From Minisyncoccota bacterium (GTDB lineage Bacteria > Patescibacteriota > Minisyncoccia > Phycocordibacterales > CALRHW01): a stretch of DNA of 64,000 bases. The stretch spans positions 484,705 to 548,704 of the forward strand of contig JAXLZT010000001.1 in the NCBI GenBank assembly GCA_046350795.1, written 5' to 3'. How positions within the stretch are numbered: position 1 is the stretch's first letter; every line of letters starts with the position of its first letter. A program made the translations under genes and the position numbers. Below are positions 12,080 to 63,300 of this stretch, piece after piece. Under the pieces are notes generated by a model. It made no database searches. It was given only the letters and a program-made list of their open reading frames with translations, and was not told the DNA's origin.

Positions 12080-13036
12080 ATGGTCCATCACAGCATTGTA
12101 TTGCCTTCAAAGCCAAAGATCGTATCAGAAGATAAGTTTTCTGCTGTCTATGAAATAGACGGACTTTATCCAGGGTATGGTCACACTTTAGGCAACTCTC
12201 TACGTCGCATCATTCTTTCTTCTCTACCAGGTGCGGCTATCACTTCTGTAAAAATAAATGGCGTAAGTCATGAGTTTTCTGTATTAGAAGGAGTGAAGGA
12301 AGATGTTATAAACATCCTTTTAAATCTAAAAAAGGTGCGTATTGCTATGCACTCTGAAGAGCCTCAAACTCTTACTCTAAAAGTAAAGGGTGTACAGGAA
12401 GTAACAGCAAAAGATATAGAAGCTAGTGGTCAGGTGTCTATACTAAATCCTGATTTGGTTATCGCTCACATTACAGACAAAAATACTGAGCTTTCAATGG
12501 AGATAACTGTAGAAAAAGGACTTGGATATGTTTCAAAAGAAGTGATTCAAAAAAATCGTGTTGATATAGGCACTATCACTCTTGATGCAGTATTTTCTCC
12601 GATCAAAAAAGTAAGTTATGAAGTAGAAAATATGCGTGTTGGTGATCGTACAGATTTCAACAGACTTCGCATTTCTATAGAAACAGACGGAACAATGACT
12701 CCTCATGAAGCTCTAGAAAAGTCTATTGAAATAAGTATCAACCAATTGAAAGCTATCATTGGCTTCAAAGAAGAAGAGATGCCAGAATCTCCAAAGTCTG
12801 CTTCTGAAGAGTCAGAAGAAAAGAAAGAGATTGATCCAGAATTTTTGAAAACTCGTATTGAGTCTCTAAACCTTTCAGCGCGCACAATGAATGCTTTGAC
12901 TTCTGCAAATATTCGCACTGCAGGTGGTCTCGTGAGAAAGAAAGAAAAAGATATTGCAGAAATAGAAGGTCTTGGTACAAAGGGTGTACTTGAGATCAAG
13001 AAAGTATTGAAAGAATACGGCGTAACATTAAAGTAA
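12080..13036 (+). CDS. rpoA: DNA-directed RNA polymerase subunit alpha
   Basis: Alpha N-terminal domain and C-terminal domain sequence. Confidence 0.95.
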   Translation: MVHHSIVLPSKPKIVSEDKFSAVYEIDGLYPGYGHTLGNSLRRIILSSLPGAAITSVKINGVSHEFSVLEGVKEDVINILLNLKKVRIAMHSEEPQTLTLKVKGVQEVTAKDIEASGQVSILNPDLVIAHITDKNTELSMEITVEKGLGYVSKEVIQKNRVDIGTITLDAVFSPIKKVSYEVENMRVGDRTDFNRLRISIETDGTMTPHEALEKSIEISINQLKAIIGFKEEEMPESPKSASEESEEKKEIDPEFLKTRIESLNLSARTMNALTSANIRTAGGLVRKKEKDIAEIEGLGTKGVLEIKKVLKEYGVTLK

Positions 13037-13750: not shown

Positions 13751-14149
13751 ATGAATACAGAAAAATACATAGAAACAATTGGTAGACGAAAAACTTCTGT
13801 AGCTCGAGTCAGAATGACAGAAGCTTCAAAAAATACTATTGTCATAAACGACAAAGAGTACGATGTTTATTTCCCAACTACAGCATTGAGAATCGTAGGG
13901 AAAGAAGCTCTAGCGACATCAAAAACTCCAATAAAATTTAAAATTACTGCTGTTATAAAAGGCGGAGGTATTAGTTCTCAAGCTCAAGCTCTAAGACATG
14001 GTATTTCTCGTGGTCTTGTAGAGTTTGATGCTGAGCTACGAAAGAGTCTAAAATCTTCTGGTTTGCTAAAGCGAGATGCTCGTGCAAAAGAACGACGCAA
14101 ATTCGGTCTCAAGAAAGCTCGAAAGGCTCCTCAGTGGTCAAAGCGCTAG
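13751..14149 (+). CDS. rpsI: 30S ribosomal protein S9
   Basis: S9 family with the C-terminal KKxRKAPQ(W/F)SKR. Confidence 0.95.
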   Translation: MNTEKYIETIGRRKTSVARVRMTEASKNTIVINDKEYDVYFPTTALRIVGKEALATSKTPIKFKITAVIKGGGISSQAQALRHGISRGLVEFDAELRKSLKSSGLLKRDARAKERRKFGLKKARKAPQWSKR

Positions 14150-14152
14150 TTT

Positions 14153-14183
14153 TATAAAAAAATAGGACGGTCCGTGTGGACCG
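14153..14183 (-). terminator. intrinsic terminator for the minus-strand GC-rich small gene (CGGTCC-gtgt-GGACCG followed by a T8 tract on the minus strand)
   Basis: A perfect 6-bp GC stem with a 4-nt loop. The U-tract lies on the minus strand only, with an A-tract on the plus side. Confidence 0.6.
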
Positions 14184-14215
14184 CCCTTGGTTGTGGCTTC
14201 TTCCGACTTGTCAGC

Positions 14216-14377
14216 TCACAGCCAGATCGGCTGCGGGAGCTTGGGGCTGGAGATGATGCGACCCAAGTAGACCTTGACGTGAAGCGTCTTGGACGACTTG
14301 CGTCCCTTGTCATCGAAGTGGTGGACGACCACTTCCGCCTTCGTTCTCGTCTTGTTCTTGCTGATGATCTTGACCAT
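14216..14377 (-). CDS. hypothetical small basic protein (53 aa) in GC-rich cassette A
   Basis: Hand translation gives MVKIISKNKTRTKAEVVVHHFDDKGRKSSKTLHVKVYLGRIISSPKLPQPIWL. GGGG Shine-Dalgarno 6 nt upstream. Codons end in G/C (aag, gtc, atc, ctc), unlike the neighbours. The unit has its own promoter and terminator. The ORF track only showed the longer overlapping frames at 14152..14481 (-) and 14174..14407 (+), which look non-coding. Confidence 0.5.
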   Translation of the reverse strand: MVKIISKNKTRTKAEVVVHHFDDKGRKSSKTLHVKVYLGRIISSPKLPQPIWL

Positions 14378-14410
14378 TTCGGACCCCTTTCAGAAGTGTA
14401 CGAATGACAT

Positions 14411-14429
14411 GTGACTGAACACCAGTCAC
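14411..14429. promoter_or_regulatory. perfect inverted repeat GTGACTG-N5-CAGTCAC at the 5-prime end of the cassette-A transcript, upstream of grpE
   Basis: A 7-bp perfect palindromic arm pair lying between the cassette-A -10 box and its Shine-Dalgarno, and roughly 100 nt upstream of grpE. Confidence 0.45.
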
Positions 14430-14435
14430 AATACA

Positions 14436-14463
14436 AGTATAACATGTATATATATTTTGTCAA
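14436..14463 (-). promoter_or_regulatory. sigma70-type promoter TTGACA-16-TATACT (minus strand) for cassette A
   Basis: Consensus -35 box with 5/6 match in the -10 box and a 16-nt spacer. Confidence 0.55.
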
Positions 14464-14533
14464 GTAGAACGAATAACTCAATTTTGCCTATAATATTGAA
14501 ACCATGGTCGTGTTTTGATAACATACTGTTGTT

Positions 14534-15140: not shown

Positions 15141-17045
15141 ATGGCAAAAGTAATAGGAATTGATTTGGGAACAACAAACTCTGCTGTGGCTGTAATGGAA
15201 GTCGGTGGACCAAAAATACTTGAGAACGCTGAGGGTGCACGTACTACACCTTCTATTGTTGCTATATCAAAAAGCGGTGAGCGCACAGTCGGTCTACTTG
15301 CAAAGCGCCAAGCTGTAACAAATCCAAAGAATACAATTTTCGGAATCAAGCGCTTTATCGGTCACACATTTGAAGATCCAGCAGTACAAAAAGACAAAGC
15401 GACAGTGCCGTATGACATTAGCGCTTCGGGAGACGGCGGTGTGCTCGTAAAAATGGGCGACAAAGACTACAGACCAGAAGAAATATCTGCAATGATTTTG
15501 TCTAAACTAAAAGCAGATGCAGAAGCTCGTCTCGGCGAAAAAGTTACAGAAGCTATCATCACTGTGCCTGCGTATTTCAATGATGCACAAAGAAAAGCAA
15601 CAAAAGATGCGGGAAAAATCGCTGGCTTGGATGTAAAAAGAATCATCAATGAGCCTACAGCTGCGGCTCTCGCATACGGATTTAATAAAAAGAAAGACGA
15701 AAAGATTGTTGTCTTTGATTTTGGAGGAGGAACATTTGATATTTCTGTACTCGAAGTGGGTGGTGACGTGGTAGAAGTAAAATCAACAGACGGCGACAGT
15801 CATCTCGGAGGAAAAGATATTGATCAAAAGATTATTCATTTCCTTGCTGATGAATTTAAAAAAGAAAACGGCATTGATCTCACAAAAGATGCTTTTGCTC
15901 TACAGCGTCTAGATGAAGCTGCAGAAAAAGCAAAAATCGAGCTATCTACTGCCGTAGAAACAGAAATAAATATTCCTTTCATTACATCTGATGCTTCCGG
16001 CCCAAAACATTTTGTCATGAAAATGACTCGCACAAAGCTAGAGGAGCTCTGCGCTGAGTTTATCGACCGCGCTATCATGATCACAAAGCGCGCAATGGAA
16101 GCTTCTCCTTTCAAGATGGCTGAAATAAACGAAGTTGTGCTCGTAGGAGGACAGACTCGTATGCCAAAAATTCAACAAGCTGTAAAAGAGCTTTTTGGAA
16201 AAGAGCCAAATCTATCTATCAATCCTGACGAAGTGGTAGCGCTCGGTGCTGCACTACAAGGAGGTATCATTACAGGAGATGTAAAAGATGTTTTGCTTCT
16301 CGACGTTATTCCTCTTTCTCTTGGTATTGAAACAATGGGTGGCGTAGCTACGCATCTCATTTCAAAAAACACTACTATCCCTGCTTCAAAGTCACAAACT
16401 TTTTCTACTGCCGCTGACAGTCAAACATCTGTGGAGATTCACATCGTGCAAGGTGAGCGACCAATGGCGAGCGACAACAAAAGCCTCGGTAAATTTATTC
16501 TCGACGGCATTCCACCAGCGCCTCGCGGTGTGCCTCAGGTAGAAGTGACTTTTGATATTGATGCCAACGGTATTTTGAGCGTAAAAGCAAAAGACAAAAC
16601 TACTGGCAAGGAGCAGTCTATCCGCATCGAAGCAAGCTCTGGTCTTTCAAAAGAAGAGATTGATAGAATGCAAAAAGAAGCAGAAATGCATGCCACAGAA
16701 GATGCAAAGAAAAAAGAAATCATTGAAGCAAAAAATATTGCTGAGCAAATGATTTATACTGCAGAAAAATCTCTAAAAGATAATGAGGGAAAAATCAGTG
16801 ATGAAATAAAAGCAGGTGTAAACGAAAAGGTTACCGCTCTAAAAGCTGTAAAAGATGGTACTGACAAGGAAGCTATCATGAAAGCAACGACTGAACTTTC
16901 TACAGAAATGCAGAAAATAGGCGAATATATGGCCAAAAATGCCCCTCAGAGTGCTCCAAATGCTGGCAACGACTCAACTACCGAAGGCCCTGTTAGAGAC
17001 GCTAATTTTGAGGAAAAGAAGGATGGCGAAGCACCTAAGGCTTAA
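15141..17045 (+). CDS. dnaK: molecular chaperone DnaK (Hsp70)
   Basis: IDLGTTNS and the other Hsp70 signatures; 634 aa. Confidence 0.97.
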
Positions 17046-18135: not shown

Positions 18136-18148
18136 GAAATCTTTATCA

Positions 18149-18176
18149 TTTGACCCCTGCACCTCGACCATATATT
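18149..18176 (+). promoter_or_regulatory. candidate promoter (TTTGAC-16-TATATT) for GC-rich cassette B
   Basis: Hexamer matches about 55 nt upstream of the cassette-B ATG. Confidence 0.35.
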
Positions 18177-18229
18177 ATTCCGTCAGGTTAAGGTCTTTTA
18201 CCCCCAAACTCCGAAAGGAAAGAAGCATC

Positions 18230-18628
18230 ATGCCGAAAAAAGAAAAACGCAAAGTTTCCGGTGTGCTTGGAAGGCGAGCGCTTCGCCTCCCACTTCAGCT
18301 CGAAAGGCTCAAACACCCGGATTCCTGGCTTGAGCGAATGGTGGCACGTATGTGGCATAAAGAGAATGCTGTTCTTCCTGCACCGTTCCCGTTTGTGCTC
18401 GGTGCTCAACCACCAGCTTTCTCGGGCAGGGTCAGAGCCATTCTGAATGAGGGCAACCCCAGCCGTCGTGACGTTGAAATCGTCAACTCGACTATCCAGT
18501 GGCTTGGTACCGGGGTCGGTATCTGTTTCTGTAGGGAGGTCGTAGAGACCTACAATCGAGAACTGGTGAAGCGCAGGCAAGCACGACGACGCAAGATGCA
18601 GAAAGCATCTGGCACGAAGACCTCCTAA
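18230..18628 (+). CDS. hypothetical basic protein (132 aa) in GC-rich cassette B
   Basis: A GC-rich ORF with G/C-ending codons and Lys/Arg-rich termini. Upstream promoter-like hexamers and its own terminator are present. The equally long antisense ORF 18188..18580 lacks these signals. Confidence 0.45.
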   Translation: MPKKEKRKVSGVLGRRALRLPLQLERLKHPDSWLERMVARMWHKENAVLPAPFPFVLGAQPPAFSGRVRAILNEGNPSRRDVEIVNSTIQWLGTGVGICFCREVVETYNRELVKRRQARRRKMQKASGTKTS

Positions 18629-18646
18629 CGGGGGTTTTCTTTTTTA
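18619..18646 (+). terminator. intrinsic terminator of cassette B (GACCTCC-taac-GGGGGTT followed by a T-rich tract)
   Basis: Stem with a G-U wobble followed by TTTTCTTTTTT; the stop codon sits in the loop. Confidence 0.5.
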
Positions 18647-18654
18647 TAAAAAAC

Positions 18655-18683
18655 TTTCAAAACCCGCGCCATTCTGCTATTAT
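18655..18683 (+). promoter_or_regulatory. candidate promoter (TTTCAA-17-TATTAT) for trpS, giving a leaderless transcript
   Basis: The -10 box ends 7 nt before the trpS ATG and there is no Shine-Dalgarno. Confidence 0.35.
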
Positions 18684-18690
18684 TTCCAAT

Positions 18691-19677: not shown

Positions 19678-19707
19678 TCAAGATATTTAAAAATTAGGCA
19701 AACAAAA

Positions 19708-19740
19708 ACCCCGCAACAACGCAGACTCGGGGTCTTTGTT
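19708..19740. terminator. bidirectional terminator between trpS (+) and the cassette-C gene (-): ACCCCG...CGGGGT with T-rich flanks
   Basis: A GC stem flanked by A-tracts and T-tracts on both strands, sitting between the convergent stops. Confidence 0.45.
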
Positions 19741-19758
19741 GATGCGGAGTGTCTCTCA

Positions 19759-32320: not shown

Positions 32321-32367
32321 GCCATAGCCTACAGTGGCTTTAAATAGGCCTTTGTCGGCTATGGCGA
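32321..32367 (+). promoter_or_regulatory. leader stem-loop: 10-bp perfect inverted repeat CGCCATAGCC...GGCTATGGCG enclosing an ATG of the cassette-D ORF
   Basis: Perfect 10-bp arms separated by about 27 nt; an in-frame ATG lies inside the 3-prime arm. Coordinates are approximate (+/-2). Confidence 0.45.
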
Positions 32368-33125
32368 CACAGTGTTGCCCGCTAGCACTTCACAATGCCA
32401 TCCGTTTTACACGGACTGGCTCTACAGGAGACTGCCTAATGGGCACCTCAAATCCATCCTTTCAGACCAGCCAGATGCGTAAGGTTGAGGATACGCTACA
32501 TGAACAAGGGGTTACCCCAGAGATTCTGCAGAGAAACCTACTCGAGGGGGGTTATCTGTCGGACATTGCAGAAGCTGCGGCGTTTGGAGTACTTCCTTCT
32601 CGTAAGGAACTGCGCAATCTCTATGGTTTGAATGCGAAGACAAATCCACATCACAGCATCGTGATCAACTACGGCACGAAGAAGAATCCGAGAACACTCG
32701 GGGAGATGATCAGTTCGATAGAAGAGCTCCTTTGTGATCGTGATTCGAGTGGCTCCACGAAGACCTTTCGGGAACAGGGTCGCGTTGAGTATTTCACTCT
32801 TGTTGCAAACTTCCCCAATAAACTTCCTGATCCGAAAGCACTTCATCGCTTTCTGTCAGCGGAACCCGGCGGGAAACTCTGGATGTACGGAGGAATCGAA
32901 CACCTCGTGCATATCGACTGGAGTCAAACTTCGATTTTGGGGCCAAAGGCCCAGCTCTATGCACCAGGAGGAGCAATCCACTTCGGAAGAAATGATGAGG
33001 ACGTGCTCGTACCATACCTCACAATTAATCAGCATGGTAAGAAGTGGCTACGGTGGGAACTCAACCCATTTAGGAATGGTGTTGTTGAACTCAAGATCCT
33101 GCTTGTACGCAAGGTCAGCAACTGA
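32334..33125 (+). CDS. hypothetical protein (up to 263 aa) in GC-rich cassette D
   Basis: A GC-rich ORF whose start could be the GTG or one of the downstream ATGs. It has its own promoter-like hexamers and a strong terminator. No recognisable domain. Confidence 0.5.
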   Translation: MALNRPLSAMATQCCPLALHNAIRFTRTGSTGDCLMGTSNPSFQTSQMRKVEDTLHEQGVTPEILQRNLLEGGYLSDIAEAAAFGVLPSRKELRNLYGLNAKTNPHHSIVINYGTKKNPRTLGEMISSIEELLCDRDSSGSTKTFREQGRVEYFTLVANFPNKLPDPKALHRFLSAEPGGKLWMYGGIEHLVHIDWSQTSILGPKAQLYAPGGAIHFGRNDEDVLVPYLTINQHGKKWLRWELNPFRNGVVELKILLVRKVSN

Positions 33126-60957: not shown

Positions 60958-60966
60958 AGTCGTTAT

Positions 60967-60994
60967 ATTCTACATAAATAGCCCAAAAATGCAA
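60967..60994 (-). promoter_or_regulatory. promoter TTGCAT-16-TAGAAT (minus strand) for rplU
   Basis: Hexamers just upstream of the rplU ATG. Confidence 0.45.
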
Positions 60995-61003
60995 GAAAGT
61001 TTG

Positions 61004-61283
61004 GAAAAAAGGGAAGCCCCGGAGACGCGATGCATCAATCCGGGGCAGAGCGTTACACCCAGCTTGGCGACAGGGCGATCACGCTCTAGATACTGACTGG
61101 ATCACCTCCCGTTCTTGGATCCAAGGGCTTCAAGGCCAGATCTGCCTGATCCTGAAGCTTTGTGGCGAGATGGAAAACCCACGATAGTCTTCATGGTGAT
61201 AACTCCTCTGGCGCATTGCGCCGGTTGTTCACACATTGGTGCTAACCCGTTTATAAGTATAAACAGACAAACAAAAAATACAA
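61004..61283 (-). other. GC-rich cassette F, a compact minus-strand transcription unit (promoter TTGTAT-16-TATACT, leader hairpin, roughly 250-nt transcript, intrinsic terminator): sRNA or small-peptide mRNA
   Basis: -35 at 61278-83 and -10 at 61256-61. GGCGC-aat-GCGCC hairpin at 61210-22. Terminator CCCCGGAGA...TCCGGGG plus T-tract at 61004-45. Internal palindromes CAGATCTG and CTTGGATCCAAG. Confidence 0.45.
61102..61194 (-). CDS. candidate 30-aa peptide inside cassette F (MKTIVGFPSRHKASGSGRSGLEALGSKNGR)
   Basis: GAGGAG Shine-Dalgarno 8 nt upstream of the ATG. The longer track ORF 61102..61290 begins upstream of the predicted transcription start. Confidence 0.25.
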   Translation of the reverse strand: MKTIVGFPSRHKASGSGRSGLEALGSKNGR

Positions 61284-62920: not shown

Positions 62921-62982
62921 GATACAGGATGTTATGGCGTGGGGACGTTCCCCTAGCCAATTTCACACACGGAGGTGTAAAG

Positions 62983-63300
62983 ATGGTTCTCAGACCACAG
63001 ACAGAGGTCGAGCGTCTTGCCACCTACTCGGTGGCAAAATTTCGGGCAAATCCGAGAATGGGTTTACCGATCGCTATCATAGAGGTGCTCCGCTATGCGG
63101 GAAGAGAGTACCTCTATGAGAACGTGCTCAACGAATGTCGTCGCAGAAGTCAGATCAAGAGACGAGCAAAGAGTGATGCGCTCAAGAACACGACGACACA
63201 AGAATCCAAGCCGTGCCAAAAAGTGACAAAATCACATACTGGCACGGACACTCCTTTCCTCCCAGGAATGGAACCAACAAAGAAGTACAGGCTCACCTAA
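62983..63300 (+). CDS. hypothetical basic protein (105 aa) in GC-rich cassette G
   Basis: An ATG (MVLRPQ...) 7 nt after a GGAGG Shine-Dalgarno. The track ORF begins upstream at 62929. GC-rich codons; a terminator follows. Confidence 0.5.
   Translation: MVLRPQTEVERLATYSVAKFRANPRMGLPIAIIEVLRYAGREYLYENVLNECRRRSQIKRRAKSDALKNTTTQESKPCQKVTKSHTGTDTPFLPGMEPTKKYRLT

Follow-up and report, generated by a model that had tools for sequence, protein, structure and literature searches.

Phage morons, in the concept of Hendrix and Juhala, are autonomous promoter-ORF-terminator units lying between adjacent genes of lambdoid prophages. Here we analysed a 64,000-nucleotide (nt) stretch of the genome of a Minisyncoccota bacterium (contig JAXLZT010000001.1; the whole stretch is referred to as the window), in which a small unit of similar build, named Cassette A, occupies positions 14150-14495 on the minus strand, bounded by the stop codon of rpsI and by the ancestral promoter of grpE. 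Like a moron, Cassette A comprises in silico a single small open reading frame (ORF) with its own sigma-70-type promoter and a factor-independent terminator. It is wedged between genes that are adjacent in relatives, its base composition deviates, and it is present in some strains and absent from others; a moron product, too, is usually an orphan accessory protein. Unlike a moron it resides in a cellular chromosome and not in a prophage, no phage gene lies nearby, and searches of phages, IMG/VR and PHROGs with the cassette gave no match, so that the phage residence that marks a moron was not found. The reading that we favour, with moderate confidence, is that Cassette A is a recently acquired, strain-variable and autonomous moron-like orphan micro-gene in the rpsI-grpE spacer of one Paceibacteria species (candidate phyla radiation, CPR).

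The lineage-specific ORFan genes for small proteins in bacteria have been reviewed (PMC12315717, PMC11293555). The gene of Cassette A resembles them in being short, compositionally atypical, missed by annotation, fast-evolving and without a homologue outside one species, and an external (horizontal) origin is plausible for it as well. It differs from them in its unusually extreme contrast with the host (GC content at third codon positions, GC3, of 0.87 vs 0.25) and in its complete set of strong signals, with a Shine-Dalgarno (SD) lead in a host without SD motifs. A literature search on Cassette A turned up only general papers on ORFans and on leaderless translation.

Contigs carrying the locus were gathered by exact look-up of the flanking RpsI and GrpE proteins (ENA, Logan and NCBI metagenome-assembled genomes, MAGs). 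An identical 384-nt rpsI-grpE spacer was seen in the one Paceibacteria species on 10 or more independent contigs from metagenomes or MAGs, and among the numbered comparison loci a 384-nt spacer free of indels was present in L002-L004, L006-L008, L010, L011 and L091. As different projects yielded the same sequence in 10 or more independent assemblies, the idea of an assembly chimera or a synthetic insert was dropped. By its GrpE, scanned against one genome per species, the host falls in the Patescibacteria and is of the Parcubacteria/Paceibacteria type. Cassette A is flanked by the rpoA-rplQ-rplM-rpsI operon and the grpE-dnaK-dnaJ operon, and the adjacency of rpsI and grpE is kept in most of 80 relatives. 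Among these, the closest (L012-L017), whose GrpE is 65-89% identical, have an AT-rich spacer of 54-74 nt; in L001 and L005 the spacer measures 137 nt and is unrelated in sequence to Cassette A. Homology among the window, L012 and L001 was limited to the grpE-proximal ~40 nt. These include the grpE promoter-like site TTGAAA-17-TAACAT (14496-14524, plus strand), which lies outside the cassette, ends 9 nt before the grpE ATG and is conserved in the cassette-free L001 and L012. From the short spacer of the relatives and the homology of only ~40 nt we concluded that the remaining ~345 nt (14150-14495) are a lineage-specific insertion. The inserted segment forms a sharp GC island, with 52-60% GC vs 38% across the window. 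Neither terminal inverted repeats nor flanking direct repeats were found at Cassette A; a miniature inverted-repeat transposable element or an insertion sequence-type element was rejected, since terminal inverted repeats and a target-site duplication are lacking and neither the window nor any of the loci has a second copy of the cassette. The rpsI-grpE slot is an insertion hotspot.

In the sister strain L001 (4409-4499), and also in L005, a 91-nt element occupies this slot in place of Cassette A. Its fold, a 17-bp closing stem with two hairpins, reaches -42.5 kcal/mol (z = -7.8), and Rfam gave no match to it. A 94%-identical copy is located elsewhere in the distant genome L017 (GrpE 69% identical), and because of its different position there the element has the appearance of a small, structured mobile element or of an unknown non-coding RNA. 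Partial copies were seen at L017:5520-5584 and L092:6436-6461.

The elements that the first-pass annotation had assigned to Cassette A were all located at the positions it gave on the minus strand, and its view of the cassette as a self-contained expression unit was supported in silico. The promoter (14463-14436) consists of TTGACA (14463-14458), a 16-nt spacer and TATACT (14441-14436), as described; it matches 11 of 12 consensus positions and carries the TG of an extended -10. Matches of at least 11/12 occur four times on both strands of the window (128 kb) vs 1.8 expected, and the remaining three are located directly upstream of host gene starts. The cassette promoter and the grpE promoter stand back to back, and 33 nt separate their -35 boxes. 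On the plus strand a single promoter-like site (14404-14432, 9/12) was seen inside Cassette A, directed away from the ORF. The perfect 7-bp palindrome GTGACTG-N5-CAGTCAC was likewise present (14429-14411), forming a hairpin in the minimum free energy (MFE) fold as well as in the centroid fold, and it occurs a single time in the window, where 0.05 matches are expected. Beginning 7 nt past the cassette -10 box, it is predicted to lie at or next to the transcription start, spanning +1 to +19. Immediately 3' of this hairpin a mini-ORF of six codons (MSFVHF*, 14410-14390, minus strand) was observed, in frame with the downstream ORF, ending 4 codons ahead of it and overlapping the SD motif; it is probably incidental, or it could be a feature of translational coupling or regulation. 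The GGGG SD that had been proposed is present as AAGGGG (14389-14384), 6 nt before the ATG of a 53-aa ORF (14377-14216, minus strand), whose translation is identical to the one given before. For the terminator (14187-14156, minus strand) the hairpin and the T tract were found as claimed, with corrections: the tract is a T7 (14162-14156) and not a T8, and the stem (14187-14164) has 10 bp, seven of them G-C pairs and one G.U, around a 4-nt loop. It is the sole hairpin downstream of rpsI, and would therefore probably also close the converging rpoA-rpsI operon from the other side.

The 53-aa frame (isoelectric point 10.6, 6.1 kDa, MVKIISKNKTRTKAEVVVHHFDDKGRKSSKTLHVKVYLGRIISSPKLPQPIWL) shows GC contents of 0.44/0.35/0.87 at the first, second and third codon position, while the GC3 of host genes is 0.22-0.33. 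This periodicity was reached by 0 of 100,000 shuffles and tracks the ORF. When the frames were scored with a codon model trained on two other foreign cassette genes in the window (cassettes C and D, see below), the 53-aa frame obtained +21.9 bits, the best of all six frames; the host codon model gave a positive score for no frame of Cassette A. Moreover, it is the only ORF with both start and stop inside the predicted promoter-terminator transcript. Codon periodicity and codon scores thus support the 53-aa frame as coding, or at least coding-derived.

The 53-aa protein is predicted to be basic and hydrophilic (grand average of hydropathy -0.38) with no transmembrane helix. In the AlphaFold single-sequence model it forms a three-stranded antiparallel sheet, a beta meander (residues 2-7, 11-21 and 27-37), followed by a disordered proline-rich tail; the mean predicted local distance difference test score of 72.7 makes this a moderately confident model. 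Foldseek of the model against the PDB gave nothing significant, the best hit (E = 0.5) being a generic beta meander. With the type I toxin-antitoxin systems (hok/sok, tisB/istR, fst, txpA) Cassette A shares an intergenic, strain-variable ORF of less than 60 aa, a strong promoter, a structured 5' untranslated region (UTR) and an intrinsic terminator. Unlike those small hydrophobic toxins, the peptide is hydrophilic and basic, and its model is a beta meander without a helix. Furthermore, no antisense promoter was found over the ORF or the 5' UTR, although rpsI read-through is possible, and no repeated copies of the cassette were found.

Put together, the cassette may work as follows. The near-consensus sigma-70 promoter would fire toward rpsI and yield a transcript of ~275 nt, opening with the 7-bp stem-loop, which may shield the 5' end from 5'-end-dependent RNases. 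Protection of this kind is provided by the 5'-terminal hairpins of the ompA and ermC mRNAs. A 5' stabiliser of the cassette mRNA is the simplest reading of the palindrome; it could also be the binding site for a regulator of Cassette A itself. The AAGGGG motif would bring ribosomes to the ATG 6 nt downstream, giving a strongly basic 53-aa protein whose predicted fold is a beta sheet of three strands followed by the proline-rich tail. The GC-rich hairpin and its T7 would end the cassette transcript, and probably that of the converging ribosomal-protein operon too. The coding sequence would come from a GC-rich, SD-using source, its drift toward host composition still to come. As to the product, our best guess is a fast-evolving accessory protein in a setting of conflict or interaction, for example binding nucleic acids or a partner at the phage or host interface.

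Two alleles of Cassette A and one recombinant (L010) were found, differing at 11 sites within the cassette and at a single site in the spacer of the grpE promoter. The 53-aa ORF is intact in both alleles and in the recombinant, and no indels were present. Divergence amounts to 3.1% for the cassette and 4.9% for the ORF, compared with 0-0.6% in the immediate flanks. The promoter, hairpin, 5' UTR and SD carry no allele difference in 118 nt vs 11 in 228 nt elsewhere, an avoidance with P = 0.010 under uniform and 0.044 under GC-weighted placement, and the expression signals accordingly look constrained. A difference in the terminator stem (14167) changes the G.U pair to G-C. Mutagenesis by a diversity-generating retroelement was considered for the clustered substitutions and dropped, as the changes are not adenine-specific. 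The breakpoint of the L010 recombinant lies within Cassette A, between 14266 and 14317. The surrounding population is also mosaic: compared with L002 over window positions 12080-13036 and 15141-17045, the divergence is 8.7% in rpoA and 13% in dnaK but falls to 0.25-1.4% from rplQ to grpE. The mosaic divergence and the recombinant point to frequent homologous recombination among diverged strains.

Several observations weigh against a functional micro-gene. All five changed codons of the 53-aa frame are non-synonymous (R11G, V18I, H19C, F21L and L38G) and none is synonymous. The eight nucleotide changes behind them fall 5/2/1 on codon positions 1/2/3, and the flanking host genes of the same strains show 31 synonymous and 2 non-synonymous codons (Fisher p = 4e-5 vs the 53-aa frame). 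Neutral drift fits this variation, as the probability of zero synonymous changes is 0.08 for eight independent hits and 0.18 for five events. The five replacements without a synonymous change, being compatible with neutrality, therefore lend no support to purifying selection on the peptide, which is either under diversifying selection or unconstrained. Nor was a relative of the protein found. A word-indexed search of 5.8 billion proteins returned no homologue, and the best Pfam match (PF21606) scored 15.6 bits against a cut-off of 27. NCBIfam, PHROGs and PADLOC gave no match, and translated and DNA-level searches of JGI metagenomes, IMG/VR, phages, plasmids and 80-90 related genomes or loci found no homologue. 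No gene caller predicted the 53-aa ORF in any of the public annotations that we looked up, and the MFE fold pairs the SD with a downstream CCCC. Finally, the host seems to lack the SD-led initiation on which Cassette A would depend. An SD motif precedes 0 of 11 curated host gene starts (12080, 13052, 13405, 13751, 14534, 15141, 17053, 18691, 59331, 60957(-) and 62370(-)) and, in a crude count, 2 of 41 host starts vs 9% of random positions. At grpE, trpS, rplU and rmuC a -10-like box stands 7-10 nt before the ATG, which suggests that these genes have leaderless or near-leaderless mRNAs and are translated in that manner.

An exhaustive HMMER search against 1.84 billion representatives gave four matches to the 53-aa protein (to satellite-like translations, a MucBP adhesin and a giant repeat protein). 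All were rejected as artefacts, since the scores sum a resemblance of 15-35 residues over tandem repeats, with single stretches at 20-27 bits. By these searches the protein is a complete, lineage-restricted orphan.

The alternative that survives best, a serious rival if an unlikely one, is that Cassette A is a non-functional relic, that is, a foreign coding fragment with a chance or hitch-hiking promoter and terminator in an insertion hotspot. Its donor periodicity would be kept through youth, no useful protein would be made, and at most the terminator would be of use to the host by ending the rpsI operon. The exclusively non-synonymous but neutrality-compatible changes speak for a relic, as do the faster divergence of the cassette and its ORF compared with the flanks, the total orphan status of the protein, and the occurrence of other unrelated insertions in this slot and in neighbouring slots of other strains. 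Against it, both alleles keep the ORF, ATG, SD, 11/12 promoter, hairpin and terminator intact, in the right order and without indels, and the expression signals are spared by the allele differences (P = 0.01-0.04). From a streamlined CPR genome whose ancestral spacer has 54-74 nt, one would expect 345 nt of junk to be purged, and three sibling cassettes in the window share the organised layout.

Distinctly less probable is that the functional product is the ~275-nt structured RNA itself, as a trans- or cis-acting small RNA (sRNA), possibly dual-function, or as an antisense to rpsI read-through, with the ORF being secondary. The predicted minus-strand transcript folds better than shuffles (z = -4.8), in keeping with an RNA product, and so does the plus strand (z = -4.3); good folding on both strands is what is expected of a GC island with two strong hairpins. 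A GC-rich island within an AT-rich genome is typical for structured RNAs, three of the four clustered changes at 14321-14326 keep an 8-bp internal hairpin paired by wobble or hit its loop, and conservation extends to the promoter, 5' UTR and terminator but not to the peptide. On the other side, Rfam 15 gave no hit at gathering score in the window and none even at E up to 10 in the cassette region, the best sub-threshold score being 20 bits vs a cut-off of 64.5, and ARAGORN found no tRNA or tmRNA. The strict 3-base periodicity with its high GC3 is left unexplained by a non-coding RNA. Judged from two alleles only, which are too few for covariation, the changes keep the predicted fold no better than random substitutions (fractions 0.10 and 0.19), and three of the seven changes at paired positions break pairs. 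Cassette A resembles dual-function sRNAs (SgrS/SgrT, RNAIII/hld, SR1/SR1P) in having a ~275-nt structured transcript with its own promoter and terminator and a small ORF, and differs from them in that no target or seed region was identified and in its foreign codon periodicity, which points to a protein-coding origin and not to an RNA that gained an ORF.

We regard it as very improbable that the real gene is one of the two longer overlapping ORFs, of 77 aa (plus strand, 14174-14407) or 109 aa (minus strand, 14152-14481). The first-pass annotation had taken both to be non-coding, and their placement, their codon scores and the lack of homologues bear this out. The allele changes do fall mostly on third codon positions of the two longer frames, giving 5 synonymous and 2 non-synonymous codons in the overlap region for the 109-aa frame and 3 and 2 for the 77-aa frame, but this excess is not significant, as the probability of at most one hit at the third position of the 53-aa frame is 0.19-0.46. 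Conservation, named beforehand as what might favour a longer frame, thus gave no significant support to either of them, and no positive support to the 53-aa peptide. Gene calls for the 77-aa ORF exist on three Logan contigs and one ENA contig, whereas NCBI and most other gene callers left the rpsI-grpE spacer empty. The frame of the 77-aa ORF has a GC1 of 0.78 and a GC3 of 0.47, and its GTG start (14174) is part of the terminator hairpin loop. With a GC2 of 0.87 in its core, the 109-aa frame starts 5' of the -35 box and stops past the T tract of the terminator. With the cassette codon model the two frames scored +6.9 (77-aa) and -31.5 bits (109-aa) vs +21.9 for the 53-aa frame, and neither ORF has a homologue, the 77-aa ORF matching itself alone. 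We concluded that both are artefactual.

Just as hard to credit is the proposal that the palindrome is an operator by which a repressor controls grpE-dnaK-dnaJ in place of the CIRCE (controlling inverted repeat of chaperone expression)/HrcA system: it is a perfect and unique palindrome in the spacer 5' of the heat-shock operon, with the two promoters back to back, and the stated absence of CIRCE held true (no match to TTAGCACTC-N9-GAGTGCTAA at up to 3 mismatches in the window), but its end lies 66 nt short of the conserved grpE -35 (14496) and ~100 nt from the likely start, it occupies the first 19 nt of the cassette's own predicted transcript, and it is missing in L001, L005 and L012-L017, all of which retain the grpE promoter. 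Since the palindrome travels with the insert and is absent from these relatives, the operator idea is not supported. The search for further copies that had been suggested found none in the rest of the window, and in 95 loci it occurred only within copies of the cassette; JGI metagenomes and IMG/VR contained no exact match to the hairpin module. The palindrome has in common with CIRCE that it is an inverted repeat upstream of a dnaK operon, and it differs in sequence, spacing and position, in not being conserved with the grpE promoter and in lying inside another transcript.

Besides Cassette A, the window holds three sibling cassettes whose proteins are annotated as hypothetical by NCBI: cassette B (about 18150-18650, plus strand) with a 132-aa ORF (MFO0718919.1), cassette C (about 20358-19710, minus strand) with a 165-aa ORF that has a signal-peptide-like N-terminus (MFO0718921.1), and cassette D (about 60587-59976, minus strand) with an acidic 150-aa ORF (MFO0718961.1). 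Each of them shows a TTGACA-type -35, a 5' UTR of 50-70 nt, an SD-like motif, one ORF and a hairpin terminator, and their GC3 is 0.55-0.72 vs about 0.25 for the host. SD-like motifs are thus present in all four GC-rich cassettes. The cassette C protein, the only sibling product that was searched, had no homologue in 5.8 billion proteins. No border motif common to Cassette A and cassettes B-D was found, so that no shared insertion mechanism is visible. A comparison of border and internal motifs among the four cassettes gave nothing significant, the only common sequences being a 14-mer shared with rpsI and an AT-rich terminator tail. This 14-mer, AGCTCGAAAGGCTC, is common to the 3' end of rpsI (14116-14129) and the interior of cassette B (about 18297-18310), probably by chance. 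Sub-threshold Rfam matches in other GC islands were all discarded as generic terminator hairpins.

Going beyond the single locus, we tentatively propose, while considering it improbable as a whole, that cassettes A-D form a class of GC-rich, SD-dependent orphan cassettes with promoter and terminator, of which A is the smallest and most extreme. They would have been captured in core-operon spacer hotspots of an SD-less, largely leaderless-translating Paceibacteria lineage, from a GC-rich partner or an unsampled mobile pool, and their products would be under diversifying selection at the symbiont-host or symbiont-phage interface.

Further variable slots and outliers were observed in the region. 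The dnaJ-trpS slot (window 18136-18690), which here holds cassette B, contains an unrelated gene for a 132-aa PemK/MazF-type toxin in L092 (4699-5097, minus strand) and a SET-domain gene in L001 (8151 onward). In L093 (DRR685535, 807-2763) ~1.9 kb with three small genes lie between cassette C and trpS; this insert is flanked on both sides by ~62 nt corresponding to window 19680-19741, possibly a target duplication at a convergent terminator. A stretch of 59% GC upstream of rplU (60959-61260) shows no convincing ORF and no Rfam match, and two plus-strand ORFs, 32361-33125 and 62929-63300, are compositional outliers with a GC3 of 0.51 and 0.54.

If the 53-aa protein of Cassette A is made, its gene has been overlooked by every public annotation of the organism, and some assemblies call an antisense artefact instead. 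Should the reading of Cassette A as an acquired micro-gene be true, it would be a clean case of ultra-small CPR genomes acquiring self-sufficient foreign micro-genes with signals unlike the style of the host. If the cassette is not expressed, it calls for caution, as textbook signals and perfect periodicity may linger in young foreign DNA without a present-day function. Together with the sibling cassettes and the slot insertions, the locus would mark the spacers of core operons as an accessory-gene compartment of streamlined symbionts, and the cassettes in these spacers are concrete candidates for host or phage interaction factors.

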